The notes under the pieces are model-generated. The model was not told the DNA's origin. It searched no databases and saw nothing but the letters and a program-made list of their open reading frames with translations. A stretch of DNA of 61,669 bases, counting the filler, from Stramenopiles sp. TOSAG23-6 (lineage: Eukaryota), in assembly GCA_900128565.1 (NCBI GenBank). It is 13 parts of 13 records of this genome, joined end to end, with 100 filler letters (N's around TTAATTAATTAA, not from the genome) between each part and the next. Parts side by side here need not be neighbours in the genome. Positions count along the whole stretch, not along the records: positions 47,540 to 52,187 come from LT637106.1; 12 more parts are not named here. The stretch is one strand, 5' to 3'. The position numbers were made by a program, and so were the translations under genes. Within the stretch, counting starts at the first letter, position 1; each line of letters starts with the position of its first letter. This document shows, one piece after another, positions 3,825 to 61,669 of the stretch.

Positions 3825-4580
3825 ACGGATTTTCCCACTCGTCATTTCGTTTTTCTTGATCCGTTTCTTCTTCTCGGTATTTTTTGAAATATTTTGTTTT
3901 TGTTATACTAGCTCCATTAAATGCGCTTCCAGCCAAAGGATGTATTGTAAAAAATATTTTTTTGTAAAAAAATTATTTTTTGTTTAGGTACAAAATTTTC
4001 AAAAAAAAAAAAATTAAATTTGAAATTAATTGTGAAAACGTACATGCACCTGCTTACCTTCTGCTAAATGACGCCATTTTTGGTATACCCCTGGATGCAT
4101 TTCATGAAAGGGTGAGTTAACATCAATTTTATACCAAAAAATCTTTTCTCGGTGAGAATCATGTAATCAAAGGAAAATATTTCATTTGTTTTTTTGTTAG
4201 GTACAAAATTTACTACGAAAATAAAATTGAGTTTTTTTTTTTTTTTGAAACGGACATGAGTATTGTCCCAGCGGAAGTATAAATCACCACCACCACTATC
4301 TTTTGGTACCGTCCAATGATCTTTCAAAGGTGGAATCATATAATCAATTTTATCCGTCCACACTGCGTTGCCTTCTTCATCTTTTGCTTCTCCTTGAACA
4401 ACAATTTTTTTAGATGGCATATTTTTAGGTATAAAAAAAATGGTACGGCCGAGATAACCCTCGAAATACATTTTCACTTTTCCTTTGACTTGAGCTTGTG
4501 CCCAAAATAATTGTGTTTCCCATTCTACAAAGTTATTTTCTTCTACTGGAATAATTCTCTCGTAAATCATTCCTGGATTA
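3825..4580 (-). CDS. GOLD-domain-like protein, partial, multi-exon
   Basis: GGGDLYFRWDNTH|DSHREKIFWYKIDV resembles the GOLD C-terminal motif (xFDNxxS...K.V.Y). GT-AT introns at 4161-4255 and 3940-4043 keep the frame. Confidence 0.6.
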
Positions 4581-4663: not shown

Positions 4664-4763
4664 NNNNNNNNNNNNNNNNNNNNNNNNNNNNNNNNNNNNN
4701 NNNNNNNTTAATTAATTAANNNNNNNNNNNNNNNNNNNNNNNNNNNNNNNNNNNNNNNNNNNN
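4664..4763. other. Artificial contig spacer. Identical spacers at 9421-9520, 14177-14276, 18932-19031, 23686-23785, 28439-28538, 33190-33289, 37940-38039, 42690-42789, 47440-47539, 52188-52287, 56932-57031
   Basis: 44 N + TTAATTAATTAA (stops in six frames) + 44 N, recurring every ~4.75 kb. Confidence 0.99.
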
Positions 4764-9411: not shown

Positions 9412-9577
9412 GTAAGATGCNNNNNNNNNNNNNNNNNNNNNNNNNNNNNNNNNNNNNNNNNNNNTTAATTAATTAANNNNNNNNNNNNNNNNNNNNNNNN
9501 NNNNNNNNNNNNNNNNNNNNATTTTGTACCTAACAAATTTTCAAAATTTTTTTTTGAAATATTTTTTCACAATACAT

Positions 9578-10482: not shown

Positions 10483-12081
10483 ATGTCAAACGTGCCTAAT
10501 ATTCTCAACTTTATAGGAGGTGAATTCACACCTCTTCTGTCTGGGAAAACATTTTTGCAAGTTACTGCTCCAGCTTCGGGTGATCACATTGCTAATGTGT
10601 GTGTTTCTAATGCTGATGACGTAAATATTGCTGTAGAAGCTGCGCAAAAATCACTTGAAGGTTGGAGGTCTCTTACAACTATGAAACGCGCCAAGATCAT
10701 GTACAAATTCCGCGAGCTTGTGGAACGCGATGCTGATGAAATTTCTCGTCTTATTGTTCTCGAAAATGGTAAAAATTTTGCGGAAGCTCGAGCTGAGGTA
10801 GCAAAAGGTAATGAAACAGTTGAGTGGGCTTGTGGAATGCCTTCGTTGCTAGCTGGTCGCAGAACCGAAGTTAGTCGTGGTGTTACATGTTACGATGTCC
10901 GCGATGCTCTTGGTGTTGTTGCATGTATTGTTCCCTTTAATTTCCCTTTTATGGTTCCTATGTGGACCGTTCCTATCGCTCTTACTGCCGGAAATTGCGT
11001 CATCTTAAAACCCAGTGAAAAAGTTCCTCTCACAATGAACAAAACTGCTGAGTTAATGAAAGAAGCAGGAATTCCCCCTGGAGTCTTTCAAATTGTACAT
11101 GGTACTCGAGATGCCGTTGAAGGTTTATGTGACGCACCAGGTGTCAAAGCTGTGACTTTTGTCGGTTCGTCTCTTGTCGCAAAATTAGTCTCCCAAAGAT
11201 GTTCAAAATTGAATAAAAGAGTGATGGCAATGGGTGGAGCAAAGAATCACCTTGTTGCTTTAGAAGATTGTGATGCAGAGGGCGCAGCAAGAGATATTGT
11301 TGCCTCATTTGCGGGTTGTGCAGGACAACGTTGCATGGCTGCGTCTGTGTTGCTCTTGGTCGGAGAATGCTCAAAGTTGTTGACAAATGTTGTGCAAAGA
11401 GCTCAGGCATTACAACTAGGACAAGAAAAAGGACAGGTTGGTCCAGTCATTGATGCTACCAGTAGAGCTCGTATTTTGAGCTATATTGAAGGAGCAATAT
11501 CTAGGGGAGCTAAAGTTCTCGTGGATGGGAGAAAAATGGCTCAAACAAATCCAGGAACTTGGGTTGGACCAACTATACTTTTACACCAAACTCATGACGA
11601 TGAAGCCGTTCGAAGTGAAATTTTTGGACCTGTTCTTTCTGTAGTTCGTGTAAAAACTTGGCAAGATGCCATAGACATTGAAAATTCTTCTCCCTATGGT
11701 AACGCTGCGTCTATATACACTTCCATCGGTGCTCATGCAGAATGGTTTTCTCCTCGATTTCGTGCAGGAATGATTGGAGTTAATATTGGCGTACCGGTAC
11801 CAAGGGAACCTTTTTCATTTGGAGGACATGCACTGTCAACCTCAAAATATGGTAGCTTTGATGTTACTGGTGATGGAGCGATGGAATTTTTCACGACTAG
11901 AAGAAAAGTTACTTCAAAATGGACAAAGATTGTGGGTACGTTTCCAACATTCAATTTCAAATTCTTTTTTGTGTCACATTTTGTACTTAACGATTTTTTT
12001 TTGTGGCATATTTTTCACAATACTTGGAGACCTGAGGAAGTAGATTCCACCGATCACGCAAACTTTGCAGGACAAATGTGA
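10483..12081 (+). CDS. ALDH6A1: Methylmalonate-semialdehyde dehydrogenase (acylating)
   Basis: PFNFPFMVPMW, KPSEKVP, FVGS, MGGAKNH, GCAGQRCMA, EIFGPVL, GVNIGVPVP. One intron starts at 11936 near the C-terminus. Confidence 0.95.
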   Translation: MSNVPNILNFIGGEFTPLLSGKTFLQVTAPASGDHIANVCVSNADDVNIAVEAAQKSLEGWRSLTTMKRAKIMYKFRELVERDADEISRLIVLENGKNFAEARAEVAKGNETVEWACGMPSLLAGRRTEVSRGVTCYDVRDALGVVACIVPFNFPFMVPMWTVPIALTAGNCVILKPSEKVPLTMNKTAELMKEAGIPPGVFQIVHGTRDAVEGLCDAPGVKAVTFVGSSLVAKLVSQRCSKLNKRVMAMGGAKNHLVALEDCDAEGAARDIVASFAGCAGQRCMAASVLLLVGECSKLLTNVVQRAQALQLGQEKGQVGPVIDATSRARILSYIEGAISRGAKVLVDGRKMAQTNPGTWVGPTILLHQTHDDEAVRSEIFGPVLSVVRVKTWQDAIDIENSSPYGNAASIYTSIGAHAEWFSPRFRAGMIGVNIGVPVPREPFSFGGHALSTSKYGSFDVTGDGAMEFFTTRRKVTSKWTKIVGTFPTFNFKFFFVSHFVLNDFFLWHIFHNTWRPEEVDSTDHANFAGQM

Positions 12082-14111: not shown

Positions 14112-14276
14112 GTATGTTTTATTTTTTTTTAACAAAAAAATCGAATTTATTTTTCGTACGAAATTTTGTACCTAACNNNNNNNNNNNNNNNNNNNNNNNN
14201 NNNNNNNNNNNNNNNNNNNNTTAATTAATTAANNNNNNNNNNNNNNNNNNNNNNNNNNNNNNNNNNNNNNNNNNNN

Positions 14277-16793
14277 TCTTACTTCTTATTATTTTACCAC
14301 GTTGATGGGCTTGTATATGCACTGCTGCTTTATGTTTCTTTTGTTTTTGAATTCTCCATTTTTCCCGTTTCCTTTTTTCATCATTTCTTTTTTTTTCTAA
14401 CTTGGCGTCACTCAATAATAAATTTGTTTTACATCTTGAAACTGAACCTCTTTGATGTTTCTGTATAACTATTGATGCTTTATCTCTCATTTTGTTTTGT
14501 AACAAAATTTCAGATTCCTTTGTTGCATTTGCTTGTAAAATACGTCGTATTTCTTTGGCTTTTATCTGACGTTGTTTACACTGTATTACTACTGATGCCT
14601 CATTCATTTTTTGTTTTTGTTGATTTAATAAGAGTTTCAAATCATTATTTCGTTTTTTTGTGATAAGAATACTTTTTGTATATCGGCTTTTAATGGCTTG
14701 TGGAGCTTCATTACTATTCCGTTTTTCCCAGGATAGTTTAACTGTATATCTTTTATTTTTCGTTTGTTTTGNTTTGTCATGTTCCTCTATAATATTGTCT
14801 ATTTCTTGTAATGTATATTTTTTCATTCCCATAGAATGTCCATGACAATTAGAAATATCAATGCTTCCAACAGCACATATTTTCATTGGTATTTTGGTTT
14901 GTAGACAAATTATTAAGTGAGTATCATTAGTAATTGGGTCATCATTGACACATAGCCAAAATACTTGTTCAATTGTTGATTCTTGACTAGTCTTATTATC
15001 ATTTATTATTTGTATATTTCGTGATTTTTGATGTCTATGTAGTGGTGTATTTTGGTGAATGTATTCTATGTCTTTAACAGGATTCAGTATAGTTTTGTTA
15101 TCTTTATGAAATGTAATATTTGGAATAGTACAAAACACATTACCTGAATTTTTCATTGAATTCTCATTATTTTGAGTATTATACATACTATTATCAATAC
15201 TACTACTTGTATTCATTGAATTTGTTGAAACAGTAGTAGCAGAAGTAGAGCCACTACTAGTATCACTACTACTAGTATCACTACTACTAGTATCACTACT
15301 ACTTGTATCACTACTACTTGTATCACTATTACTAGTATCAATACTAGGATTATCACCACTACTGCTTTTATCACTTGCTTTTAAAGTATTATCTTGACTA
15401 CTATTCTTTTTAGTAGTAACAAAATTTGTACTCTTTTCTTTAACAATATTTGTACTACAACTTTGTACGTGTATTCTTATCCAATTACCACCTGGTTTGA
15501 CACGTGTCGTTCTTCTAGATACCATCCCACGATACGCAGATGAAATTTGCGTTGATGATTTATGACTATGCTTTTTTCTTTCAATTTGTTGTGGTATACA
15601 TTGTGGATAAATATATCAAATTTGAAATGTATGAATACAAAAATAATAAAAATTATAAGTACAAAATTTAAAAAAAAATAGAATTCAGAAATGAAAATGT
15701 ACATGACGTCACTATGACGAAGTTGTCTCCCCCGTTCTATTCTTTGAATGAGGATGGTTGCTCTTAAAGTTTTCATTTCATGAACTATTTTTTTACGTAA
15801 TGAACGTCCACGATGTCTTGCTTGAATGTATGATGCAATTGTATGTGCGTCTTTTATGTAAGGGTGAAGAAAATATCAAATTCTATTTCTATTGTTAGAT
15901 ATTTAATTTAGTACGAAAAACAAAAACTCAAATTTGAATAATACATTTGAATTATACATTTGAATAATACATTTGAATTATACATTTGAACAATACATTT
16001 GGAATTTCTAATGAAAACATACATATGTTTTGGATGTCGCCAGGGACGCCATCTTCTTGTTGCATTTGTCCAGAGTCCAACTTGAATAAAATCATCTGTA
16101 CCTTTTTTCTTACCTAAAACTTCATCATCAAGTTGAACTTCGTTTTTCAAATCAAAAGCATTTTGAAATAATCCACCAACTTCATCAAAGTCATCGCCCC
16201 ATNTTTTGTGAACAAATATTTCAAACATTCAACTTTTTCTGTTAGGTATAAAATGTACNAAAAAAAAAGCNATACANTANGGTTAGGGTTGAAAACGTAC
16301 ATATTTCTCCAGCACCATACGCATCCATATTTTGTTCTATATTTTGATCACTTGATTCATTTTTTTTATAAATAGTATGGTTATCAAATGGATCAACTTC
16401 ACCACTTACATAACTCAAATCATCATCCGAATGAAATATAAAACTATTTTGTGAACTTTCCAAGACAGTACTATTTAATGAGTTTTTACTATATGCACTA
16501 TGAATTCTTTTATGTCTATGGCCTAATTGTTTTTGATGTTGCTGATAGTTTTCTGGACGATCATACGTCGAATGATTTGTTTTTCTGTTCCAATAATAAA
16601 AAGAACCTTCGTTGTATTCGTCAGCAATCTTTTCCCAGTCAGTTTTCAATTCCANTGGACGATTCAAATAACTTTTCTTACTTATTGGATTCCACCAAAC
16701 TTCATTTCCGTTTTCATCAAAATACAAAACAATCTCTTGATTTTGAGATATGTGAGGTGTAGAATTATGAATTATATCACTGGAACTAATCAT
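14277..16793 (-). CDS. WW-domain and multi-IQ-motif protein, 3'-truncated
   Basis: WEKIADEYNEGSFYYWNRKTNHSTYDRP; many IQ...RG motifs. GT-AT introns 16201-16300, 15856-16022 and 15596-15702 chain the exons in frame. Confidence 0.8.
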
Positions 16794-17124
16794 GTCTTAC
16801 GTTTGTTGAAATTCTTTTATATATGACTTAAAAGTGTCGTATTTTGTTGCATGGTGTTTATGTTTGTTTTTTTAATATAAATAAATATTCAATAACATAT
16901 TGTACACGTAATACACTATCCTACACAAATGTTCAAAGTATACAATTTCTATACAAGTTTACTGTGTTCCAAGACAAAAACAAGAAAAAACATAACACAA
17001 AGTACGTAATAGAAAACATATATATATCACTATTTTGGCAGTTACAACTTTGTAAGTTGCAACCCTAACCCTAGAAATAATACTCTACTTTAAAAATTGC
17101 CAATAGAATAACATTTAATTTTTA

Positions 17125-17796
17125 TTAACTCAACACGGACCACCATAGCGTAAAGCATAATANCAGTCCAATCAATATGGCTATAATGGTATTATCCCGA
17201 GTTTTCTTATTTTTAATGCGATGAATTAATTTCTTTGCACCAGGAAAAACACTTCCTATTTCTACTAATTTTGAACTCGCTGCAGTAAAAATTCGTCTTT
17301 GAGCAAAAATCTCATTTCGTGCTTCCATTGCATTATATATTATGTCTCCAGTCATTCTACTAGACTTATTGATTGCTCCTCGTTCACGTAAGAGTTCATC
17401 TGTCTCTCCTCTCATTCTATCCTCATCAGACAAATGAGCGTTTTTGAATAAAGAATTACTTTCTTGTTTTCTTCGTATACTAGTCTGAGTTCTGTTAAAG
17501 AATGTCCGATTGTCCCGTAATATATCCTTATATCTACGAAGGAGAGCCATGTTTGATACTTTTTTACACTGCTCAGTGCAGCTAGACATTTGTGTGACAG
17601 TGGCCTGTAATTTCTCAAGGAGTTCACTGGTTTCCGAAGCAGTGCGGGTCTCAGAACCTCTTGATCCACTCGATTGACTCTCAGCATCACCAAATGTTAA
17701 AGAACTATTGGAATCAAATTTTGAATATTCTTGTAGTTTAGATTCAAGGTCTCTCTCTAACTTTCGTGCTCGTTTCTTCAAATTTTCCCACAGCAT
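17125..17796 (-). CDS. GOSR1: Golgi SNARE Gos1/GS28, intronless
   Basis: WENLKKRARKLERDLESKL, LLRRYKDILRD, Qb-SNARE motif, C-terminal TM helix. Confidence 0.9.
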   Translation of the reverse strand: MLWENLKKRARKLERDLESKLQEYSKFDSNSSLTFGDAESQSSGSRGSETRTASETSELLEKLQATVTQMSSCTEQCKKVSNMALLRRYKDILRDNRTFFNRTQTSIRRKQESNSLFKNAHLSDEDRMRGETDELLRERGAINKSSRMTGDIIYNAMEARNEIFAQRRIFTAASSKLVEIGSVFPGAKKLIHRIKNKKTRDNTIIAILIGLXLCFTLWWSVLS

Positions 17797-18301
17797 TTTT
17801 TAAACACTTTGATGGAAAACGTACTCTTCTGTCAGTTGCCTTTGTACACTACAAATGAAACCTTTTCTACACTGTATGCCTATATATGCTATACAAGACA
17901 ACGTAGAGAAACTTATATTCTAAAAAAACTAAGTATGTAAAGACAATGTTCCTTTGACAATTTGTATTTATTTTTATACCGGTCTACTACGTAAACTACG
18001 TGTACAGTACTACAAAAAGGTACCAGGAATCCAGGATCTCAGATCCGGAACTTCAGGAACCCTAACCCTAATTTTCTTTTATATATATTCGTCAGAATCA
18101 GTTTCTTGCACAGACTCTTCTGGAGTCACCATAATATTATGATCTTGAAGGTGCTGGAGTTGCGGTACCATTAGAAAGTACTATCAAAAATTAAAATTGA
18201 AGAAAAAAAATAAAAAAATTCATCATTTATCAGAATTTCAAAAACAATCAAAAATATAAAAAAGACATTTTTTTGAGCTCTTCACAAAAATATTCAAAAT
18301 A

Positions 18302-18931
18302 TTATGCATCAGTGTCCATCTTATTCTCATCGCCTTCTTGTACAGCAGATAAAAAATCAATTAATTTTTGACCTTTGACATATTCAAACGGTTTGTCTTT
18401 CCCAACTACTGCGATAGAAATGTTTTTAGCTGTTAAATCACCATTTTCGTGAACGCAACCTTTCAAAGAACGAATGGCATATATTGTAGGAAAATATTTC
18501 AGATGCAATTATTTTGTTAGGTATTTTTGTTGATGATTTTTTACACGAAAAAAAAAATATGTAAAACAATGAAATAATGAAAACATACATGTTTGACTAC
18601 TTCATCCACAGACATATTATCAAAGCCAGTCTTACCATCAAGATAAAATTTGTCAATATACGTTTTTGCAGATTGTGCTCGAGCGCCTATTGCCATGTAG
18701 AGTGAACATATATTTGAAATTTGAAAAATATGTTAGATATGAAAATAATAGTAAATTTGAAATTGAAAGATGAAAAATGAAAACATACATTGCCGAGTAT
18801 TCATAATAAGACCCAGAAGGTGATGTTTCATATAAATGTGCACCAGTACGATCGTAACCAGCGACTAGAAGTCCAACACCAAATGGTCGATTATTCCAGG
18901 TCGAGTATGCAATGCAGGCTGTCCGTCAGGG
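18302..18931 (-). CDS. PSMA1: 20S proteasome subunit alpha-6 (alpha type-1), 5'-truncated
   Basis: [62 protein letters not shown]; two introns. Confidence 0.9.
18479..18588 (-). other. Intron, GT-AT ends
   Basis: AAA CAT|GTATGT...TACCTAAC...CAATATAT|GCC gives VKHAIRSL. Confidence 0.85.
18695..18788 (-). other. Intron, GT-AT ends
   Basis: GCA AT|GTATGT...TATCTAAC...CTCTACAT|G GCA gives YSAMAIGAR; the nearest downstream AG is out of frame. Confidence 0.85.
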
Positions 18932-19087
18932 NNNNNNNNNNNNNNNNNNNNNNNNNNNNNNNNNNNNNNNNNNNNTTAATTAATTAANNNNNNNNNNNNN
19001 NNNNNNNNNNNNNNNNNNNNNNNNNNNNNNNTTTTGTACCTAACAAATTTTTTTAGATTTTTTTTGAAATATTTTTCCAAAATACAT

Positions 19088-19650
19088 ATCGAATGATTGT
19101 ATTAATATTATATCTTTTATTATCATTTATCGAACCACCTGCTTGGTGTGCTTCAAGTATGTTTTATGTTTCTTGAATTTTGAGTGTAATTTTGTTTTCG
19201 TAGTAAATTTTGTACCTAACATATTTTTTAAAATTTTTTTTGAAATATTTTTCCAAAATACAATCTCACCCAGTGAAGATTCAGATAATTCAGTGGACAT
19301 TGATACAAAAATACCTGGATGTGACAAAGTACCTCGTTGGCCTATTCCACAATTGTCACCCAATGTTGCTCATATTTATGAAATACTTTGTCTTGTGTTT
19401 TTTACATGCGAACTTTTATTAAAAAAAACGTTTCAAGGTAGAGAATTATTTGTCCGGAATCGCTGGCATTTAGTTCAAATGTGTATTATTTCGTTTTCAT
19501 TTGGCTGTGTTTTGGCGTCAATACTCTTACCCTATTTACCCCATCGCCCAGCGTCGATTCTTCGTCCACTACTTTTTATTGCAATGAGTGAAAAAGTCAG
19601 GAACGAGGTGGCTACACTAGTCAGAGCATTACCCAAGTTTTTGGATGCAT
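19088..19650 (+). CDS. Two-pore channel (TPC)-like fragment (S1-S4)
   Basis: LSFIEPPAWC, IYEILCLVFF..ELLLK, ASILRPLLFI....VRNEVATLVRALPKFLD. Confidence 0.75.
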
Positions 19651-19793: not shown

Positions 19794-22640
19794 GCTAGGC
19801 CGTTTTGCAACCGTTTGGCATCCAAGTGTTTGTGGTTTTGAACATACAAACCCTAACCCTAATAGTATTACAAATACAAAAAATACAAAAAATACAAAAA
19901 ATACAAAAAAAAATTCAGATAGTTTTGATGTTTTAACAATAGAACAAAAATATCGTAATACATTTTATCAGCATGCAACAGGTTTGTGCAAATTGTCATC
20001 GTTTGTGTTGTGTTGTATCGCAAAAAGAGATTGGCAGGTGATTATTGATTATTCGAAAATTGTGAGAGATTCGATTGGTGTATGTTACGTTTTTTTTTGA
20101 ATTTGAATTTGAATTTGAATTTGAATTGTTTTTTTCATACGAAATTTCATACCTAACAAAAAAACAAAAATTAAAATTTTTTTTTTTCGAATTTCGAATT
20201 ATTATTTTTTTTTCTTTACACTTTTAAACCTCTTCATACCTAACAAAAAAAAAAATTTTACAAAAAAAAAAAAATATTTTTCAACATACATGTAAAATGT
20301 GACGCATTGACCTTACAAAAAGTTGTACCTAGCTTAGATCTGTTAATTTCGTTAGTTGTTTGTGCTACAAAATTTCGTATTCAACAAAACGAAAAAAAAT
20401 TGAAGGAAGAAAATTCGTTAGGTACAAAATTTGCTACAAAAAAGAAATCTGACAAATTTAGCTGTAATGAAATGATTGAAAGAATAAACACTACAGAATT
20501 AGATTCTTTATCAATATTGTTGCTATCGTCTGTTTGTGGAAAAGTTAGATTTCGTGCAGTAGCTTTGATGAAGTATTGTTCAGAGTTAAATTTTCATCAT
20601 TGTAACCCTAACCCTAACCCTACAGATGCTATTAGGGTTAGGGTTCCAAAATCATTATATGACGTCATACAAATGGAAGGTGAGTTGTGGTCTTTAACAT
20701 CTGGAGCAACTTCGAATGAAGAAGAAGCAATTTTAAATTTATTTACTATGACGTCATTATATGAAGAGCATAAAGAGTATCGTCCGTACATGCAGAACCC
20801 TAACCCTAATGTACAAAAAACATATGAAAATAATTATACACACGAAAAACATGAAAAACATGAAAAACATGAAAGTAATAAAAGTATTTGGCAAAATGTT
20901 CTTCAATCTTCTGAAAGTAGTATAATAGCTCAAGATATTTGGAGTCGTATATTCTGTTTTATAATGTATGTTTTATTTATTTAAAAAAAAAAAATCGATT
21001 TTTTTTTTTTACAAAATTTTTGTACCTAACAAAAAAATTTAGATTTTTTTTTTTAAATATTTTTCCAAAATAAATGAGACGTGTTCGAATCACTCATTCA
21101 CGAGCAGTCGAAATGTATGTCTTTATTATTAACCCTAAAAAAACTAAAAAAAACTAAAAAAAACTAAAAAAATAAAAAAAAAAAGATTCCACAAAAAAAA
21201 ATAAAAAAAAAGCTAGATTTTTTTTTTTGTAGGAAATTTTGTACCTAACAAATTTTTGAGTTTTTTTCTTTTTCTACAAGAAAAAAAAAAAACACTAATC
21301 AATATATATATATATGTATATCTCCTAATATAACATGGCTCGTGGAACTGCGTTGCGTATATCAAATGTACTACGAAATTCACTAACAATGAAAAATGGA
21401 ACAAACCTGACATCAACATCTGAGGGACATCCTTTTTTATCTTTATACAATAGTGAATTTTTGTCCATTTATGATCAAAACCCCAACCCTAGTACTAATC
21501 CTGATATATTTTTGTTACACTCTTCAAAATCAAATCAAACTCAACATTCTTACAAACAAAAACAGGTTTGTATCGAAGCGCAATATTGGAGAAATTTATC
21601 AATCATCACAAATTCATATATTTCGTGTACTGAAGAGTCAAACACAAAAAATACGAAAAACACGAAAAATACGAAAAATCAAAATTTTAAAAAAAATTCA
21701 ATTTCTTTGCATACTTTACTTCAAGCTTTACATAGTCAATGTATATATATGAGAGATGTATGTTTTTTTTTTTTTTTTTTAAATTTAATTTTAATTTTTT
21801 TCGTACGAAATTTTGTACCTAAGAAATTTTTGAATTTTTTTTCAAATATTTTTTCACAATTTATACCCCCGCCATTGTATTTCGACATATGCATCCTAAT
21901 CAAGTACAAGAAGTACTAACAAAACTATTTTCATTTGAAAGTGAAGTAATTGCCTCTGTAAAACGGACAAACCTGTCATCTCGTACAGCGGCTGAAGCGG
22001 CATCAAAATCAAATGTATGTTTTTTTTACTATGATTTTTTTTTTTTTTTTTTTTCTAGTACTTCTACTCAATAAGGGTTAGGGTTAGTTTTTTTTTTTTT
22101 TTTTTTTTTCAACCACGAAATTTTTTTTTGTATGAACATTTCGTACCTAACAATATTTTTTTTTTTTTTTCAACTACGAAATTTTTTTTTTTTTTTTTTG
22201 GTTTCGTAGGAAATTTCGTACCTAACAATATATTTTAATTTTTTCTTCAAAATATTGTTCATCTTATATGTTGCTTCCGCTTGGTATGCAAATAATAAAA
22301 ATAAAAAACAAAACCGTAAAATTGTTAAAGAGCGACGTCGGCAAAGAGCACTACTAACGGCATTGACACGAATTTTTTCAAATATTGCAAAATTAGCTGC
22401 TGAGCCTCATTGGTCAAATTCGAACATTCAACAAAAAAGTACAGAATAACCCTAACCCTAACCCTAACCCTAATCACACGAAAAACACAGAAATGAAAAA
22501 TATTCCTATCAGTCATGACCAAACGATACGAAATCGATTTGTTGCATTCATCATTGCTGTTGATGAAGAGCTGATACTACATTTGCCAGTGTTTTATATT
22601 GATCAATGTAGCACAATGTGTGTTTTCATTATGAATTTCA

Positions 22641-23613: not shown

Positions 23614-23876
23614 GTAGGTTTTTTTGATTTAATTTTGTTTTAATTTTAAAAAAAAAATTTCACTTTTTTTTTTTTTTTTTTTTTTNNNNNNNNNNNNNNN
23701 NNNNNNNNNNNNNNNNNNNNNNNNNNNNNTTAATTAATTAANNNNNNNNNNNNNNNNNNNNNNNNNNNNNNNNNNNNNNNNNNNNGAGAAAATATTTCAA
23801 AAAAAATCTAAAAAAATTGTTAGGTACAAAATTTCGTACATAATGTTTAAAAATTAAAAAAAAATAAAAAACTTAC

Positions 23877-47354: not shown

Positions 47355-47539
47355 GTATCAAAATTGAATATTTTTACCTTACTGTTTTTTCAAAATTTTT
47401 TTTTTTTTCATAAAATAATTTTTTTCATAGGAAATTTTGNNNNNNNNNNNNNNNNNNNNNNNNNNNNNNNNNNNNNNNNNNNNTTAATTAATTAANNNNN
47501 NNNNNNNNNNNNNNNNNNNNNNNNNNNNNNNNNNNNNNN

Positions 47540-47650
47540 ATTGAAATGAATATTGAAATGAATATTGAAATGAATATTGAAATGAATATTGAAATGAACA
47601 TTGAAATGAATATTGAAATGAATATTGAAATGAATATTGAAATGAATATT
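47540..47650. repeat. 12-bp intronic tandem repeat (ATTGAAATGAAT) x~9
   Basis: Directly visible, just inside a TMEM94 donor. Confidence 0.9.
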
Positions 47651-47661
47651 AAAAGACATAC

Positions 47662-50600
47662 ATACAAAACATCAACCAAAATGGAGTAGAAAAAACTTTC
47701 ATAAAAGATGTATCAAATTGAGATCCATTGGAATAAAACATGGAAAATATAAACTGACAAAACCCTGAAGTAACTGCAGAAATTATCCAAAATATATTAG
47801 ACCAAGGAGGACCAGATAAGATACTTTTTACACGATACAGTAAAGTCATTGATAATACAATTAATAAGTTTGATAGACACCACAATGCAACTGATCTTGC
47901 CTGTCTCACAATAATCTGTCCTTCAACACTTGATCCTTTCAATTCTTCTATAAATGAAATTTCACTCAATGATGTTCCCCATGTATTGTTGAAAAAATAT
48001 ATTTTTTTTTTGTCAGTAAAAATAAAAAACATCGTAAAGTACAAAATTTCCACACGAAACATAATAATGAAATGAATGATGAAAACGTACATAAAATGTG
48101 TTTGAGTACATCTTTACTAGCCTCTGGTGATAGTTCAAGTAAAGCCCAAATAAATATCACTACAGTTGAGGCTGCAATGGGAATACAACGAATTAATAGA
48201 ATGAATAAAATACGAGATCTTTTTATCACAATTTCATCATTTACAAATCTTTTCTGTGGAACTCTCAGTCGACTCATAGCCTGAGCCTCAACTGGTGTAA
48301 ATAAAATAGGAAATAATAAAAGAGGTATTTGGAAACAACACAACCAAAAGCAACACATTGGAGTTAACACAATAGGTATATCAAATAGTTGACCTATGAG
48401 TATTGTTAGACCACAACAGACTTGGGAAAAAAATCCAAACAGAATACTCTGCCGGCAATTATATATTGTGAAAAAATATTTGTATAACCCTAACCCTAAT
48501 AACAATTCATTAAGTACGGAATTTCATACAAAACAAAATTTAGGTAGAACAATCAATTTTGAAAACATACATGTAACATGCGTCTTCCCTCTTTAATCAA
48601 CCGAACAATAACTGATATCGATTGTAAACTGTCAACTCTTAATTCACAACCTAAGGAACAGATTGTATTATTTAATCTTAATTCGCGTCTTGAAGGTAAA
48701 GTTGAACCTACATTCACTTTATCAGGATCATCATACACTGCAATTGACAGATCTGCACAACGTAAAACTGATGCATTTGATGCATACATTGAACTTCCAA
48801 GGGCTCCGACAACTTCACCATTTTGTTGCATAATATTTATCATTTGTTTTACTCGTGATGGTGTACTATCCGTAAATAAAGAGACGAGCAATGGAACATT
48901 ATCTACATTTTCTAAATGTTCACGAATGGCAGGTATCCCATGAGGTAGTCTAGCCCTTGCATGTATTGTGAAAATTTTTTTTTTTAGGAAAACACAAAAT
49001 ATTCGTTAGGTACAAAATTTACTATAAAAAAAATAAATTTAAAATTAATTGTCAAAACGTTCATCCCAACGATCTGTACCTAATCTTTTGCTCGCTTCAT
49101 TATCTTTTTCACTCAGTGAAATTGCAGTGTTCCAACCAGTATCTAAACCCATTTTTGCGGCGAATGGTTTCGCTTGACGGAAACTTTTTTCAGAGAAAAC
49201 AACAAAACGGATTCCTGCTGTTGTGACATCATCAATAACTTTGTGCAAACCTGTCTTCGGTTGCAGACGGCACGCAATCCTGTTTTGTGGAGAAATTAAA
49301 AACAAAAGTTAGGTAACATTTTTGGTACAAAACAAAATACATTTGAAATCAATAATAATACATTAAATAGATTAGAAAAGATTATCAAATATTGATCTAC
49401 AAAAAAAAAAATTAAATGTTTTTCGTTAGGTACAAAATTTCATACAAAAAAAAATCAATAATAATAACGTACATACCTAAGAAAATGAAGCCATCTGACA
49501 TCATATCTCTCACAGCTTTTTGTGCTTTTGAAAAGGTTTGTCCCACATTATTTGAAAGTTTTGGCGTTGTAAATACATCTGAAGTATTCACAGGAGATTT
49601 CGATGTTTTTACACGTAATCTTTTTGTATTTATGTCTTTTGTTTTTTTATGTTTTATATTTTGATCAGAAAGTGTGAAATTTCTATTGGATGACAATTTT
49701 TCTGATGTATTCAAAACTTTTTCATCTTGAGTTTTTTTTTGATCTTCATTTATACTTTTATTTTCTTCATTTTTAGTTTGTTGAGTATCACTAGCTTCCA
49801 ATATATTCGTCATATTACTCATTCTTATATGACTTTGCATATTTCCATTTTGAGATAATTTTAAAAAATGTTTCCGATCAGGAGCAGGAACGGGTAAAAA
49901 TCCAAATGCCACTGCGTCAAGATCCTCTTGCTCCCAGCGCATACACATTGCTTGAAGACCTCTTCGGCAGGCATCTCCGAGGGGACAGATACACTCCCCA
50001 TCCCAATAATGGATTGTACAAAAATATTCTACAATTAGGTTTGGGTTAGGGTTGTACAAAAATATTCTAAAAATGTATTACATTTATAAATAAGAATTTG
50101 AAATTCATGATGGAAACAATACATTTGAAATTCATGATGGAAACATACATGAGCACAGTTTGCTAATAAAGTTTTTGGAGACCCAGCACTCATTAACTTC
50201 AATAAACCAACATTTCTACAATCTTCTGTGACTTTTAATGTCAGCTGTGGAACACAAAGCTTCAACAAACCTCCATCAGAAGAATCTAAAACAGAAATAG
50301 ATTCAAATAAATCATTTCTTGTTGTAGACATTGTTTGCTCTGAATTTCGTGTTTTAGACGTTTTCTGAAACGTTTCATGAGTTTTATCATCTGATCCCAT
50401 CAACTGGAATTCTTGTAAAACACGAAAACAAGAAACATCAGATCCGACAAATCCCATATACTGTGAAAACAATGTAGTAAAAAATTCGTTAGGTAAAATA
50501 TTTTCATAGAAAAAAAATGTAGGTAAAAAATTAAATTTTGAAAACTTATATTTCTCGTGCTAAACTTGCCATGGCAAGGCGTATTGGAGGAGAAATACTG

Positions 50601-52132
50601 TCAATCACTAAATCAGTCAAATATTTTGTCTTTGATGGGACAACATTTGCATGTAACATCAAACCCATTCCTAAAGGCTTCAAGGAAGACAAATGTATTT
50701 TGGAAAAATATTTCAAAAAAAAAATGTTAGGCACAAAATTTTTATAAAAAAAAAAATCCAATTTGAAAAAAAATAAAACATACATGTCTATGCCATTGAA
50801 TTGATTCAAACTTTACTTTATTTTTACTTTCAGGATCAGGATGTAAATCTAAAATAGTATGTACTTTTAGGAAAATATTTAAAAAAAAATGTTAGGTACA
50901 AAATTTCGTACGAAAAAAAACATATGAGTTTTTTTTTTATAACGTACATGAGTGCCTTCATCACCATTTCCTGTATAACTCTCCTCTTTGATACAGACTT
51001 CTTCTACTAGTGGAGTTCGTTCTCGTACAGCTTCCGAATCAATACAGCATAATACTGTGATGCTTCCAAGTTTATCAATGAGACCAAGAGGATATGTATT
51101 TTGGAAAAATATTTCAAAAAAAAAACTAGAATTTGTTAGGTACAAAATGTTTATAAAAAAATAAATTCAAAATTGAAAAAAAATATAACATACATGGATC
51201 AGCATCAGGTGGAAGAGACGCTAAAGTCAATCGATTCCATTTCTTAGTGAGACCAAAACTCATGTATAATGAAAAAATATTTAAAAAAAAAAATGTTAGG
51301 TACAAAATTTTTATAAAAAAAAAATGTAGACAAAAAATTGAAATGAAAAAATATTTAAAAAAAAAAATGTTAGATACAAAATTTTTATAAAAAAAAAATG
51401 TAGACAAAAAAATGAAATGAAAACGTACATCAATACATGCCTTAACATTAACGATATAATAACCATACAGCGTTTAGGTTTACTCATATTATCATCCAAT
51501 ACATTCTCCGTACCATTAGGGTTAGGGTTATTATCAGACAATGATCGAGATAGTGATGGCAAGGCTCCTGAGTGTGTCAAAATGTTTGAAGTAGCTACGG
51601 AATCTAAAGTTAACAACATTGGAGGACTTAATAATGAGCACATGCATATATTGTGAAAAAAAAAATTGTATAAAATTCGTTAGGTACAAAATTTGGTACA
51701 AAAAAAAAATTGTATAAAATTCGTTAGGTACAAAATTTGGTACAAAAAAAAATTTGAAATTGATAAAATGTACATATACTCACAGATAATGGCTTTATAA
51801 TAAAAAGTCTGACGGCATTTTCAGATGTTTTATCATCTGATCGTCTTACCCAATGGAGTATGAAAAATATTTCAAAAAATGAAAATCGTTAGGTATAAAA
51901 TTTTTTGAAAAAAAAAAATAAATTCGAAATTGAAATGAAAACGTACATGAAGTATTGATAATAGTAAACTACATATTGTACTTATTATTAATAAATATCG
52001 TGCATTTCGTTGAGCTTCCTTCAAGCGCGACCGAAAAGCTGTTGGTCTATAACTAGTATTTGGTTTTAATGCAGCATCTAATAAATTTAATAAAAACGTT
52101 TCCTGCATTACAAACTGATCATACGGTGCCAC
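47662..52132 (-). CDS. TMEM94: TMEM94 (KIAA0195) P-type-ATPase-like protein, internal part, 13 exons
   Basis: LGSITVLCCID, WHRHLSSLKPLG, YWDGECICPL, GIRFVVFS..KPFAAKMGLDTGWNTAISL, ARLPHGIPAIREHLENVDNVPLLVSLFTD. 12 complete introns: 47981-48090, 48461-48570, 48961-49062, 49280-49472, 50009-50148, 50456-50549, 50693-50783, 50859-50947, 51094-51193, 51262-51428, 51646-51773, 51853-51946. Confidence 0.92.
48961..49062 (-). other. Intron, probable GA-AT ends
   Basis: TGG GAT|GAACGTTTT...TGTACCTAAC...CACAATACAT|GCA AGG GCT AGA. Confidence 0.6.
50456..50549 (-). other. Intron, probable AT-AT ends
   Basis: GAA AT|ATAAGTTTT...TACCTAAC...CAGTATAT|G GGA TTT gives LAREMGF. Confidence 0.65.
50693..50783 (-). 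other. Intron, GT-AT ends
   Basis: AGA CAT|GTATGT...TGCCTAAC...CCAAAATACAT|TTG TCT gives the conserved WHRHLSSLKPLG. Confidence 0.88.
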
Positions 52133-52341
52133 ATGTATTTTGGAAAAATATTTCAAAAAAAATCGTTAGGTACAAAATTTCGTACGANNNNNNNNNNNNN
52201 NNNNNNNNNNNNNNNNNNNNNNNNNNNNNNNTTAATTAATTAANNNNNNNNNNNNNNNNNNNNNNNNNNNNNNNNNNNNNNNNNNNNTTTGTACCTAACA
52301 AATTTTAGTTTTTTTTTTTGAAATATTTTTCCAAAATACAT

Positions 52342-55211: not shown

Positions 55212-55641
55212 TATAAAACACTTTACACAGTCGCTACCGCATGCAATATAAACTTAAAAACGAGTTTCTAGATAATCCTTATTTTTACTAGTATTACCTG
55301 TAGGCTGTAGTAGTGACGATATACCGTAATGTTGAGTTGACATGAAAATTCTGACTCGAAACCGCCGGTACCGGGTACTCCAGGTAGTACCACGAAAAAA
55401 AAAAAAAAATAAAATAAAATGAACTCTCAACGGAATAATGATGTAATCAAATCATACTTGCATCATACTTGTTATATATGAAACATAAAAAAAAAGTAAA
55501 AAAAAAAAAAAAAGTCCTGCCAGGGAGTCGAAGAACCCTAACTGTTTTTATAAGATGTCATTATCAATTTTTTTTTTCATTCAAAAACAAAATAAAACAA
55601 AAAAAACAAAAACAAAAACCAAAACATAAAAAAAAAAAAAA

Positions 55642-55714
55642 AGTCCTGCCAGGGAGTCGAACCCTGAATCTTCTGCTCCGTAGGCAGACGCCTTATCCAT
55701 TGGGCCAACAAGAC
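55642..55714 (-). tRNA. tRNA-Arg (anticodon ACG)
   Basis: GTCTTGT TGGCCCAATGGATAAGGC G TCTGC CTACGGA GCAGA AGATT CAGGG TTCGACT CCCTG GCAGGAC T folds as a cloverleaf and is followed by a poly-T Pol III terminator. Confidence 0.95.
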
Positions 55715-56008
55715 TTGTTTTGTACTATCTGCTCCGTAGCGATAGTCTTCTGCTCCGTAGGCAACAAGACATTTTCTATAGTATCCGTTCCGTAGTGACA
55801 CGACTTCCATTGGGCCAACAATTTCGAATAAACGACATCATCAAGTTTTATAAAGAAATTTTTTTTTCCCCCTAGTCACTAACATTCATAAAGAACCAAT
55901 ATGATTTATAGTTCAAATTGTTGTAGAGAAGAAAATACATAAAACTTTGAATGTTTCATCAAATACAATTTAATAATTTAACATTCATTATGATTCAAGA
56001 ATTTTGAT

Positions 56009-56931: not shown

Positions 56932-57031
56932 NNNNNNNNNNNNNNNNNNNNNNNNNNNNNNNNNNNNNNNNNNNNTTAATTAATTAANNNNNNNNNNNNN
57001 NNNNNNNNNNNNNNNNNNNNNNNNNNNNNNN

Positions 57032-59548
57032 TCTTACTTCTTATTATTTTACCACGTTGATGGGCTTGTATATGCACTGCTGCTTTATGTTTCTTTTGTT
57101 TTTGAATTCTCCATTTTTCCCGTTTCCTTTTTTCATCATTTCTTTTTTTTTCTAACTTGGCGTCACTCAATAATAAATTTGTTTTACATCTTGAAACTGA
57201 ACCTCTTTGATGTTTCTGTATAACTATTGATGCTTTATCTCTCATTTTGTTTTGTAACAAAATTTCAGATTCCTTTGTTGCATTTGCTTGTAAAATACGT
57301 CGTATTTCTTTGGCTTTTATCTGACGTTGTTTACACTGTATTACTACTGATGCCTCATTCATTTTTTGTTTTTGTTGATTTAATAAGAGTTTCAAATCAT
57401 TATTTCGTTTTTTTGTGATAAGAATACTTTTTGTATATCGGCTTTTAATGGCTTGTGGAGCTTCATTACTATTCCGTTTTTCCCAGGATAGTTTAACTGT
57501 ATATCTTTTATTTTTCGTTTGTTTTGNTTTGTCATGTTCCTCTATAATATTGTCTATTTCTTGTAATGTATATTTTTTCATTCCCATAGAATGTCCATGA
57601 CAATTAGAAATATCAATGCTTCCAACAGCACATATTTTCATTGGTATTTTGGTTTGTAGACAAATTATTAAGTGAGTATCATTAGTAATTGGGTCATCAT
57701 TGACACATAGCCAAAATACTTGTTCAATTGTTGATTCTTGACTAGTCTTATTATCATTTATTATTTGTATATTTCGTGATTTTTGATGTCTATGTAGTGG
57801 TGTATTTTGGTGAATGTATTCTATGTCTTTAACAGGATTCAGTATAGTTTTGTTATCTTTATGAAATGTAATATTTGGAATAGTACAAAACACATTACCT
57901 GAATTTTTCATTGAATTCTCATTATTTTGAGTATTATACATACTATTATCAATACTACTACTTGTATTCATTGAATTTGTTGAAACAGTAGTAGCAGAAG
58001 TAGAGCCACTACTAGTATCACTACTACTAGTATCACTACTACTAGTATCACTACTACTTGTATCACTACTACTTGTATCACTATTACTAGTATCAATACT
58101 AGGATTATCACCACTACTGCTTTTATCACTTGCTTTTAAAGTATTATCTTGACTACTATTCTTTTTAGTAGTAACAAAATTTGTACTCTTTTCTTTAACA
58201 ATATTTGTACTACAACTTTGTACGTGTATTCTTATCCAATTACCACCTGGTTTGACACGTGTCGTTCTTCTAGATACCATCCCACGATACGCAGATGAAA
58301 TTTGCGTTGATGATTTATGACTATGCTTTTTTCTTTCAATTTGTTGTGGTATACATTGTGGATAAATATATCAAATTTGAAATGTATGAATACAAAAATA
58401 ATAAAAATTATAAGTACAAAATTTAAAAAAAAATAGAATTCAGAAATGAAAATGTACATGACGTCACTATGACGAAGTTGTCTCCCCCGTTCTATTCTTT
58501 GAATGAGGATGGTTGCTCTTAAAGTTTTCATTTCATGAACTATTTTTTTACGTAATGAACGTCCACGATGTCTTGCTTGAATGTATGATGCAATTGTATG
58601 TGCGTCTTTTATGTAAGGGTGAAGAAAATATCAAATTCTATTTCTATTGTTAGATATTTAATTTAGTACGAAAAACAAAAACTCAAATTTGAATAATACA
58701 TTTGAATTATACATTTGAATAATACATTTGAATTATACATTTGAACAATACATTTGGAATTTCTAATGAAAACATACATATGTTTTGGATGTCGCCAGGG
58801 ACGCCATCTTCTTGTTGCATTTGTCCAGAGTCCAACTTGAATAAAATCATCTGTACCTTTTTTCTTACCTAAAACTTCATCATCAAGTTGAACTTCGTTT
58901 TTCAAATCAAAAGCATTTTGAAATAATCCACCAACTTCATCAAAGTCATCGCCCCATNTTTTGTGAACAAATATTTCAAACATTCAACTTTTTCTGTTAG
59001 GTANAAAATGTACNAAAAAAAAAGCNATACANTANGGNTAGGGTTGAAAACGTACATATTTCTCCAGCACCATACGCATCCATATTTTGTTCTATATTTT
59101 GATCACTTGATTCATTTTTTTTATAAATAGTATGGTTATCAAATGGATCAACTTCACCACTTACATAACTCAAATCATCATCCGAATGAAATATAAAACT
59201 ATTTTGTGAACTTTCCAAGACAGTACTATTTAATGAGTTTTTACTATATGCACTATGAATTCTTTTATGTCTATGGCCTAATTGTTTTTGATGTTGCTGA
59301 TAGTTTTCTGGACGATCATACGTCGAATGATTTGTTTTTCTGTTCCAATAATAAAAAGAACCTTCGTTGTATTCGTCAGCAATCTTTTCCCAGTCAGTTT
59401 TCAATTCCANTGGACGATTCAAATAACTTTTCTTACTTATTGGATTCCACCAAACTTCATTTCCGTTTTCATCAAAATACAAAACAATCTCTTGATTTTG
59501 AGATATGTGAGGTGTAGAATTATGAATTATATCACTGGAACTAATCAT
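57032..59548 (-). CDS. WW/IQ protein (duplicate copy)
   Basis: Same translation as 14277-16793. Confidence 0.8.
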
Positions 59549-59879
59549 GTCTTACGTTTGTTGAAATTCTTTTATATATGACTTAAAAGTGTCGTATTTT
59601 GTTGCATGGTGTTTATGTTTGTTTTTTTAATATAAATAAATATTCAATAACATATTGTACACGTAATACACTATCCTACACAAATGTTCAAAGTATACAA
59701 TTTCTATACAAGTTTACTGTGTTCCAAGACAAAAACAAGAAAAAACATAACACAAAGTACGTAATAGAAAACATATATATATCACTATTTTGGCAGTTAC
59801 AACTTTGTAAGTTGCAACCCTAACCCTAGAAATAATACTCTACTTTAAAAATTGCCAATAGAATAACATTTAATTTTTA

Positions 59880-60551
59880 TTAACTCAACACGGACCACCA
59901 TAGCGTAAAGCATAATANCAGTCCAATCAATATGGCTATAATGGTATTATCCCGAGTTTTCTTATTTTTAATGCGATGAATTAATTTCTTTGCACCAGGA
60001 AAAACACTTCCTATTTCTACTAATTTTGAACTCGCTGCAGTAAAAATTCGTCTTTGAGCAAAAATCTCATTTCGTGCTTCCATTGCATTATATATTATGT
60101 CTCCAGTCATTCTACTAGACTTATTGATTGCTCCTCGTTCACGTAAGAGTTCATCTGTCTCTCCTCTCATTCTATCCTCATCAGACAAATGAGCGTTTTT
60201 GAATAAAGAATTACTTTCTTGTTTTCTTCGTATACTAGTCTGAGTTCTGTTAAAGAATGTCCGATTGTCCCGTAATATATCCTTATATCTACGAAGGAGA
60301 GCCATGTTTGATACTTTTTTACACTGCTCAGTGCAGCTAGACATTTGTGTGACAGTGGCCTGTAATTTCTCAAGGAGTTCACTGGTTTCCGAAGCAGTGC
60401 GGGTCTCAGAACCTCTTGATCCACTCGATTGACTCTCAGCATCACCAAATGTTAAAGAACTATTGGAATCAAATTTTGAATATTCTTGTAGTTTAGATTC
60501 AAGGTCTCTCTCTAACTTTCGTGCTCGTTTCTTCAAATTTTCCCACAGCAT
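59880..60551 (-). CDS. GOSR1: Golgi SNARE Gos1 (duplicate copy)
   Basis: Same translation as 17125-17796. Confidence 0.9.
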   Translation of the reverse strand: MLWENLKKRARKLERDLESKLQEYSKFDSNSSLTFGDAESQSSGSRGSETRTASETSELLEKLQATVTQMSSCTEQCKKVSNMALLRRYKDILRDNRTFFNRTQTSIRRKQESNSLFKNAHLSDEDRMRGETDELLRERGAINKSSRMTGDIIYNAMEARNEIFAQRRIFTAASSKLVEIGSVFPGAKKLIHRIKNKKTRDNTIIAILIGLXLCFTLWWSVLS

Positions 60552-61039
60552 TTTTTAAACACTTTGATGGAAAACGTACTCTTCTGTCAGTTGCCTTTGT
60601 ACACTACAAATGAAACCTTTTCTACACTGTATGCCTATATATGCTATACAAGACAACGTAGAGAAACTTATATTCTAAAAAAACTAAGTATGTAAAGACA
60701 ATGTTCCTTTGACAATTTGTATTTATTTTTATACCGGTCTACTACGTAAACTACGTGTACTACAAAAAGGTACCAGGATCTCAGATCCGGAAGCTTCAGG
60801 AACCCTAACCCTAATTTTCTTTTATATATATATTCGTCAGAATCAGTTTCTTGCAAAGACTCTTCTGGATAATATGATGATCTTGAAGGTGCTGGAGTTG
60901 CGGTACCATTAGAAAGTACTATCAAAAATTAAAATTGAAGAAAAAAAATAAAAAAATTCATCATTTATCAGAATTTCAAAAACAATCAAAAATATAAAAA
61001 AGACATTTTTTTGAGCTCTTCACAAAAATATTCAAAATA

Positions 61040-61669
61040 TTATGCATCAGTGTCCATCTTATTCTCATCGCCTTCTTGTACAGCAGATAAAAAATCAATT
61101 AATTTTTGACCTTTGACATATTCAAACGGTTTGTCTTTCCCAACTACTGCGATAGAAATGTTTTTAGCTGTTAAATCACCATTTTCGTGAACGCAACCTT
61201 TCAAAGAACGAATGGCATATATTGTAGGAAAATATTTCAGATGCAATTATTTTGTTAGGTATTTTTGTTGATGATTTTTTACACGAAAAAAAAAATATGT
61301 AAAACAATGAAATAATGAAAACATACATGTTTGACTACTTCATCCACAGACATATTATCAAAGCCAGTCTTACCATCAAGATAAAATTTGTCAATATACG
61401 TTTTTGCAGATTGTGCTCGAGCGCCTATTGCCATGTAGAGTGAACATATATTTGAAATTTGAAAAATATGTTAGATATGAAAATAATAGTAAATTTGAAA
61501 TTGAAAGATGAAAAATGAAAACATACATTGCCGAGTATTCATAATAAGACCCAGAAGGTGATGTTTCATATAAATGTGCACCAGTACGATCGTAACCAGC
61601 GACTAGAAGTCCAACACCAAATGGTCGATTATTCCAGGTCGAGTATGCAATGCAGGCTGTCCGTCAGGG
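61040..61669 (-). CDS. PSMA1: Proteasome alpha-6 (duplicate copy), 5'-truncated
   Basis: Same sequence and the same two GT-AT introns as 18302-18931. Confidence 0.9.

Follow-up and report, generated by a model that had tools for sequence, protein, structure and literature searches.

A probable AT-AT intron in a TMEM94-like gene of a marine stramenopile and the repeated, mostly AT-ending intron family around it

Background

The GT-AG rule for intron ends is nearly universal. To our knowledge, only a few lineages break it genome-wide (Fritillaria, Amoebophrya and the euglenids), and these are natural experiments on how the spliceosome reads intron ends. Here we describe a putative intron of 94 nucleotides that begins and ends with AT, at positions 50456-50549 (minus strand) of a 61,669-nucleotide stretch of DNA from Stramenopiles sp. 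TOSAG23-6 (assembly GCA_900128565.1), together with its TMEM94-like host gene and the repeat family to which it probably belongs. The window, as we call the whole stretch, consists of 13 pieces of about 4.65 kb. Twelve evenly spaced 100-base linkers (N...TTAATTAATTAA...N) lie between them, and sequences that face each other across a linker are not necessarily adjacent in the genome.

The transposon-derived introns ending in AT of Fritillaria tunicates appear to be the closest known parallel. Non-canonical introns derived from miniature inverted-repeat transposable elements (MITEs) were reportedly described in these larvaceans by Henriet in 2019. The 3' dinucleotide AT is the commonest intron end there, with 34% in F. 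borealis and 44% in F. pellucida, and AG/AT introns make up 16% of the introns of F. borealis; moreover, a YAY triplet directly precedes the 5' site and recurs as the final triplet of the intron (Soo et al. 2026, PMC13326754). These MITE-derived introns are removed by a U2-type spliceosome with duplicated U2AF (PMC13326754, PMC11282704). A second group of related systems is formed by the introners of Micromonas and Aureococcus, which are DNA-transposon introns with terminal inverted repeats and target-site duplications (PMC11282704, PMC7789003). Large surveys of introners start from annotations already available and expect 3' ends to be AG or AC (PMC12130899).

Results and discussion

The candidate AT-AT intron

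The intron and its surroundings are organized as follows.

50456..50549, minus strand: flagged intron of 94 nucleotides, ATAAGT at the start and TATAT at the end
50548..50549, minus strand: 5' terminal dinucleotide AT; position +1 is G in 11 of 12 aligned family copies
50456..50457, minus strand: 3' terminal dinucleotide AT, the family norm; the last base is T in 11 of 12 aligned copies and base -2 is A in 12 of 12
50488..50499, minus strand: branch-site-like motif ATTTTACCTAAC (family consensus TTTGTACCTAAC), a two-mismatch member of the 73 matches in the window, also placed by the family alignment
50550..50692, minus strand: upstream exon, LSSLKPLG...ASLARE plus the AT of a split Met codon, from frame and homology
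50149..50455, minus strand: downstream exon, the G of the Met codon and then GFVGSDVSCFRVLQEF..., from frame and homology

On the minus strand, positions 50549-50456 read AT/ATAAGT...CAGTATAT/G (slashes mark exon borders), exactly as drawn in an initial annotation made from the sequence. In codons the junction is ...TTA GCA CGA GAA AT/ATAAGTTTTC...TTTTCACAGTATAT/G GGA TTT, or, in a longer reading, ...TTA GCA CGA GAA AT/ATAAGTTTTCAAAATTT...TTTTCACAGTATAT/G GGA TTT GTC... Translation through the border gives ATA TAA after GAA, with the stop at 50548-50546, one codon on, as had been noted. Because this TAA is in frame and 94 is not divisible by 3, the stretch must be non-coding and be removed. 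Its removal restores the frame (...ASLARE-MGFVG...) and yields the joint LAREMGF that had been proposed, identical in the related protein P0001. Since AT is repeated at both ends of the intron, three cut registers are equivalent and produce one mRNA: AT-AT, TA-TA (shifted by -1) and AT-AT (shifted by -2); none of them has GT or AG.

The 5' site ATAAGT matches GTRAGT/GTAYGT at five of six positions, the exception being the first base. The initial annotation had described it as the consensus with G1 changed to A, and the family alignment agrees. Positions +2 to +6 of the general GTAAGT consensus are kept, which may help the site to be recognized, and the triplet ahead of it is AAT, not YAY. At the other end there is no terminal AG. 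A CCTAAC at 50493-50488 places an A (50489) 33 nucleotides from the 3' end, followed by a T-rich tract, and this A is the predicted branch point.

Frame, homology and the family alignment agree on the borders. The intron is best described as a family copy whose G1 became A. The position of CTAAC, the T-rich tract and the lack of a stable RNA fold argue for a U2-type layout. We consider it probable, at roughly 70%, that the 94 nucleotides are a genuine U2-type spliceosomal intron, an old and diverged copy of the dominant intron family of this genome.

The host gene

47540..52187, minus strand: piece (LT637106.1) with the central part of a TMEM94/ERMA-like gene, with a 1021-residue open frame after intron removal

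Homology identifies the host as a gene for a TMEM94/ERMA-type P-type ATPase, the family suspected initially. In fact, exon 48571-49005 matches solved chains of TMEM94, or "ER magnesium-transporting P-type ATPase", in the PDB (9ywq_A, E=1.8e-18; 9jjk_A, E=2.5e-18; about 2e-18 in both cases), and a protein search with the same exon yielded 1082 candidates, of which 127 proved to be relatives; many of these bear the name TMEM94. The motifs LARxIGF and RAKLPRGI...NVDNVPLLV are present in the alignment with TMEM94 along its length. The first of these had been named in the initial annotation, and it is real: a MAFFT alignment has LARLIGF, LARRVGF and LARQMGF in animal TMEM94. Across 18 of 18 full-length homologues in that alignment, from animals, an oomycete, a brown alga and others, the pattern x-(M/I/V)-G-F has no inserted residue.

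P0001, a full-length relative of 1412 residues, is 72% identical over exon 48571-49005 and reads ...AMASLAREMGFVGTDV... Across the flagged joint it reads AMASLAREMGFVG, and the spliced model is identical to it over AMASLAREMGFVG. For the comparison, twelve introns were cut out by coordinates with a script; what is left is the 1021-residue open frame, collinear with residues 269-1372 of P0001 (911 bits, 533 of 1113 positions identical). This protein collinearity supports the removal of the flagged intron from the mRNA.

P0002, the public protein model of this gene, whose source name contains "MAST3", is 100% identical over 63% of exon 48571-49005 and ranks ahead of P0001 among the matches. Within 47966-48570 (minus strand) it includes, as translated sequence, intron 48090-47981 and a portion of intron 48570-48461, and the extra residues occur in no homologue, which suggests that the AT-ending class was not recognized when P0002 was made. 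After P0001, at similar scores, the relatives of the exon include proteins of an insect (Ranatra), a metagenome, an oomycete and brown algae, with xanthophyte matches too; the oomycete, brown-algal and xanthophyte matches support a stramenopile affinity. On these matches we rejected a Fritillaria origin of the window and take the organism to be an uncultured marine stramenopile and not an animal.

Other searches at the joint were negative. A PDB search with the two exons flanking the flagged intron returned no TMEM94 match, these pieces being too short or too diverged; none of five candidates was significant among short protein fragments spanning the joint; and a protein scan of metagenome contigs for orthologous loci gave 267 pattern matches and no relatives.

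AT as the usual 3' end of introns in this gene

The twelve homology-validated introns of the gene are listed below, followed by the incomplete ones of the same piece.

51946-51853, minus strand: GT-AT intron
51773-51646, minus strand: GT-AT intron
51428-51262, minus strand: GT-AT intron
51193-51094, minus strand: GT-AT intron
50947-50859, minus strand: GT-AT intron
50783-50693, minus strand: GT-AT intron
50549-50456, minus strand: AT-AT intron (flagged)
50148-50009, minus strand: GT-AT intron
49472-49280, minus strand: GT-AG intron
49062-48961, minus strand: GA-AT intron
48570-48461, minus strand: GT-AT intron
48090-47981, minus strand: GT-AT intron
52133, minus strand: ACAT end of a partial intron
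near 47664, minus strand: GT donor

Nine are GT-AT, and GT-AG, GA-AT and AT-AT occur once each. AT is thus the 3' end in 11 of 12 (AG in 1 of 12), and the 5' end is GT in 10 of 12, GA in 1 of 12 and AT in 1 of 12. All twelve have an exonic AT directly upstream of the 5' site. The introns close with the triplet CAT or TAT in 11 of 12, one of these triplets precedes the 5' site in 8 of 12, and 5' sites of the GTAYGT type are found in 10 of 12.

The GA-AT intron, which reads GAACGTTTTG...CACAATACAT, begins with GAACGT and ends with ACAT, and it provides the second non-GT donor of the gene. Its joint DRWD/ARARLPHG agrees with P0001 (DRWDAKARLPHG), and the intron aligns in register with the family.

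For introns ending in ACAT after an exon that ends in AT, borders of the AT-AC kind could also be drawn. A single GT-AT rule is more economical, because it accommodates copies with CCAT or ATAT at the end, it leaves the strong GTAYGT site intact, and it is the sole 5' register possible for the GT-AG copies.

The initial annotation had proposed that both end bases of the flagged intron, the partners of the usual first/last-base contact, are relaxed. This stands for the 5' A; it does not for the 3' T, since 11 of the 12 introns of the gene end in AT. Judged by these introns, the 3' T is the norm of the organism and the 5' A alone is exceptional. What had been missed is that the flagged intron is a diverged copy of a high-copy family and that a GA-AT intron lies in the same gene. 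The unusual point would therefore be a genome whose standard intron ends in AT, to which the flagged copy adds the change of G1 to A, rather than one doubly relaxed intron.

A high-copy, transposon-like intron family

Nearly all introns of the gene share the layout AT/GTAYGTTTT...TTTGTACCTAAC...AAAATACAT/, or, more fully, AT/GTAYGTTTT...(CGTACGAAAT)TTTGTACCTAAC...T-rich...GAAATATTTTTCCAAAATACAT/. When up to 2 mismatches are allowed, the 61.7 kb contain the 12-mer TTTGTACCTAAC 73 times, compared with a mean of 8.09 in 100 shuffles (maximum 17). Most matches share the strand of the local gene, and 11 of 13 pieces carry at least one copy. The CTAAC motif is located 30-45 nucleotides from the 3' end across the family, with a T-rich tract after it. 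In metagenome contigs, a 17-nucleotide motif of the family gave 64 loci, 0 of 64 resembling the family.

In an alignment of twelve copies (the flagged one and 11 others), the first base of the flagged intron falls under G (11 of 12), the second under T (11 of 12) and the last under T (11 of 12, the twelfth being G). The intron aligns over its full length and in register, at 60-69% identity to the other copies, and is nearest to a sub-family starting GTAC(A/G)TTTTCAAAATTGA (copies at 24855, 25079 and 48570).

Four sequencing runs were compared with the gene: X1, X3 and X7 are DNA, and X8 is described as metatranscriptomic complementary DNA (cDNA) and flagged as probably DNA. DNA of this stretch is present in seawater and marine plankton runs. 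Bins with the element reach a depth of 222,486 in X1, 50,704 in X3 and 3,099 in X7, and exon bins a depth of about 70-96, 4-9 and 0-7, respectively. Since the depth of the element is hundreds to thousands of times that of exons in three DNA runs, its copy number must be very high.

The ends GTAYGTTTT and AAAAYAC form short, AT-rich inverted repeats, and 11 of the 12 introns of the gene have a direct repeat AT (often CAT). No empty insertion site and no autonomous element was seen. Folding the family gave 0 consensus pairs, and the introns showed no excess folding stability (z = 0.21). With many similar copies, most of them introns, in the orientation of the gene, the family resembles introners and MITEs, and we regard it, from its copies in the window and the runs, as a short, very high-copy, transposon-like intron element.

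To look for the family elsewhere in the window we used a position-weight-matrix scan trained on the introns of the ATPase gene, which replaced a noisy scan with fuzzy regular expressions (21 of 42 in frame). It returned 26 further candidates with open flanks, 16 of them in frame (14 GT-AT, 1 GT-AG and 1 GT-AA), when 8.7 were expected (binomial P = 0.003). Three of these candidates, one in frame and two out of frame, pair 5' and 3' sites of the training gene wrongly; without them, 15 of 23 are in frame (P = 0.002).

The mechanism that we propose starts from element copies of the form exon-AT/GTAYGTTTT...TTTGTACCTAAC (putative branch site)...T-rich...AAAATAC-AT/exon. The 3' AT would repeat the exonic AT that precedes the 5' end, like the 2-bp target-site duplication of a small DNA transposon, and a cut from the GT of the element to the end of the second AT would restore the original coding sequence. 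The splicing machinery would then routinely accept U rather than G as the last intron base. In the flagged copy the first base would have mutated from G to A, giving AT-AT, with a first/last pair A...U in place of the local G...U. The family seems to have everything that a U2-type intron needs except AG, namely a yeast-like GTAYGT, CTAAC and a T-rich tract.

Contrary evidence and alternative explanations

Several observations weigh against this interpretation. P0001 is a gene model (g4610.t1) and not a proven transcript. No read or contig from the four runs spans the flagged joint; in particular, no X8 contig bridges 50456-50549, the two gene-specific contigs of that run (48648-48881 and 49525-49748) lying inside exons. 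The base at 50549 is confirmed solely by X1, which is possibly the source of the assembly itself. A first-base A is found in 1 of 12 validated introns and in 0 of 16 in-frame candidates elsewhere, and given this rarity it could represent an error or a defective allele. A CAG five nucleotides upstream of the proposed 3' end would allow an in-frame AT-AG alternative. Finally, 10 of the 26 scan candidates are out of frame. Among seven of these, the frame test fails in several because their exons are short; at least one more, 24603-24513 (minus strand) in an RND/dispatched-like gene, is truly inconsistent, being out of frame as GT-AT. Only its GT-AC or GT-TG registers stay open, and about 20 residues of a transmembrane helix found in homologues are missing there, so that the assembly may have collapsed between two copies of the element. 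We did not adopt GT-AC for this copy: frame alone is behind it, and the missing residues make a collapse equally likely.

The alternative that survives best is an AT-AG intron. In this case the cut would follow GAA, the intron would be 50551-50461 and end in CAG, and one Tyr would be added (LARE-Y-MGF). The cut is in frame, the CAG lies only 5 nucleotides upstream of the family 3' end, and AG ends do occur in some family copies (49472-49280, and the GT-AG copy 24855-24747 of the same RND/dispatched-like gene, confirmed by four homologues). These AG-ending copies, however, align their G with the final T and not 5 nucleotides upstream, and the donor would begin with AT all the same. We regard an AT-AG intron as unlikely because all 18 homologues lack a residue between LARx and (M/I/V)GF; P0001, too, has exactly LAREMGF.

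It is decidedly unlikely that the first base is a base-call or amplification error, the true base being G (C at 50549 on the plus strand) and the intron an ordinary GT-AT copy. The draft assembly is certainly rough, containing 1,592 N altogether and 33 isolated N, and A1 is unique among the validated introns; however, no base between 49000 and 52000 is ambiguous, and the GA donor at 49062 in the same gene indicates that relaxed donors occur here. The initial annotation made its case depend on base 50549 in the reads, and this is partly answered. The T on the plus strand recurs in an X1 DNA contig (50064-50718, 655 nucleotides, depth about 96, 0 differences), and none of the runs lists a variant at 50549; but X1 may be where the assembly came from, and the listed contig of the independent run X3 ends at 50545, four bases before. 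X7 has loose ends only near this base.

A still less favoured possibility is that the change of G1 to A disables splicing, so that a decaying copy gives a truncated or unspliced product. In yeast genetics this change blocks the second splicing step of standard spliceosomes, and no read of the four runs spans the joint. Against this, the rest of the gene is intact, with conserved motifs and one long open frame after removal of the twelve introns, and an A...T first/last pair is routinely spliced in F. borealis (PMC13326754). We hold a dead allele to be very unlikely.

It is barely credible that the family is non-spliceosomal and removed by pairing of its ends, as in euglenid nonconventional introns, or by excision from DNA: non-canonical ends, short inverted ends (GTAYGTTTT/AAAAYAC) and a direct repeat are shared with euglenid and Amoebophrya elements (PMC11282704), but the family has no conserved pairs, it carries a strong GTAYGT, CTAAC and a T-rich tract, three features that introns of the euglenid type should not have, and its introns are present in DNA contigs of three runs.

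Comparison with known intron systems

The likeness of the AT-ending, probably U2-type family to the introns of Fritillaria extends to the 3' AT, the YAY-like triplets, the inverted ends and direct repeat that would point to a transposon origin, the A...T pair and the U-rich tract. The organisms differ, a chordate there and, by its protein matches, a stramenopile protist here, and the parallel is one of analogy, not membership. AG dominates the 5' ends of F. borealis, whereas GTAYGT is found in 10 of 12 introns here; and here one family with a conserved TTTGTACCTAAC, known from DNA alone, makes up most introns.

As in Micromonas and Aureococcus, hundreds to thousands of near-identical short intronic elements are found in marine protists, a stramenopile included, and one splice site is borne by the element while the other is formed with the duplicated target. 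The introns of Micromonas and Aureococcus are canonical GT/GC...AG, the AG being co-opted from the target-site duplication; here the duplicated dinucleotide is AT, and the introns would end in AT for that reason.

The dinoflagellates Amoebophrya and Polarella are another case of marine protists with repeated elements in their introns; these elements, too, have both inverted and direct repeats, and their borders are not GT-AG (PMC7789003, PMC11282704). Amoebophrya has highly variable borders, and its U1 is reported to be apparently absent, in contrast to the uniform ends and textbook U1/U6-type GTAYGT described here, and the introners of Polarella are mainly GC-AG.

A U12-type AT-AC intron came into question because the flagged intron begins with AT, and with ATAT in the -2 register. 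The U12 consensus combines a 5' site ATATCCTT, a branch motif TCCTTAAC about 10-20 nucleotides from the 3' end and a 3' AC. The flagged intron has ATATAAGT or ATAAGTTT at the 5' end, ACCTAAC at 33 nucleotides and AT at the 3' end, and the U12 type is ruled out by its 5' site, the branch motif with its distance, and the 3' end. A euglenid nonconventional intron was rejected on the missing consensus pairs, the z score and the T-rich tract.

Implications

A wider scenario, which we offer tentatively and find slightly easier to doubt than to accept, is that an uncultured marine stramenopile lineage gave up AG for AT as its standard 3' splice site independently of Fritillaria. A single introner family would have invaded the genome, its 2-bp AT target duplication turning into the end of the intron, and the spliceosome would then have come to tolerate first bases other than G (AT-AT, GA-AT).

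A literature search limited to main texts found no publication on AT-ending introns in marine stramenopiles. The main texts of three genome papers on marine stramenopiles (MAST), PMC5778133, PMC8163842 and PMC12614181, do not discuss splice sites: "intron" appears twice in that of PMC5778133, both times in the methods, and is absent from those of PMC8163842 and PMC12614181, and "splice" appears once in PMC8163842, in the reference list, and in neither PMC5778133 nor PMC12614181.

If confirmed by RNA, this would be a protist in which an AT-ending, transposon-like family makes up most introns, and the AT-AT intron with its GA-AT neighbour would show how far the first base can drift. It would also offer a second system, a unicellular one, for finding out which feature of U2AF, Prp8 or the small nuclear RNAs (snRNAs) underlies the AG rule. 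Public gene models would be systematically wrong for genomes of this kind; in fact, since P0002 translates through two such introns, proteomes predicted with GT-AG introns only are likely to be corrupted, which would affect downstream functional and phylogenomic work.

Other features of the window

Among family copies outside the ATPase gene, the one at 19157-19263 (plus strand) is in frame and ends in AA (CCAAAATACAA), and its upstream exon also ends in CAA; this GT-AA candidate is consistent with intron ends that repeat the target site instead of following a fixed splice signal. Another copy, 11936-12025 (plus strand), would be GT-TT (GTACGTTTCC...CACAATACTT) and lies near the 3' end of the open frame 10483-12081, which presumably encodes an aldehyde dehydrogenase; it is in frame if removed, and the frame is also open on read-through.

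The region 2700-4330 (minus strand), which we take from its motifs to be a kinesin-like gene, has introns of the family type. Two of them end in AG (ACAATATAG and ACAATAG), and another two seem to end in AT. Intron 3824-3647 has borders that do not fit the frame, and the switch-I motif typical of such proteins was not found in this gene; its introns were left out of the validated count.

Telomere-like repeats AACCCTAACCCTAA were found, with up to 2 mismatches, at 33 sites (0.27 expected), for example at 9725, 18058, 19849, 20604-20645, 22448-22473, 26118, 28667, 40761, 48486, 51516 and 60801. They occur in both introns and coding exons, and the exonic ones read as peptides of the NPNPN type, such as DNNPNPNGT at about 51516-51529 in the ATPase gene, a stretch absent from P0001.

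The ends of the pieces often lie inside the repeated intron element. One piece is present twice, at 14277-18931 and 57032-61669. The two versions are 99.4% identical, and their alignment of 4658 columns contains 4 mismatches and 14 gap openings. The linkers are located as follows.

4664-4763, 9421-9520, 14177-14276, 18932-19031, 23686-23785, 28439-28538: linkers
33190-33289, 37940-38039, 42690-42789, 47440-47539, 52188-52287, 56932-57031: linkers

Rfam and tRNA scans of the window found no snRNA or other Rfam family, and a tRNA-Arg (ACG) gene lies at 55641-55715 (minus strand).

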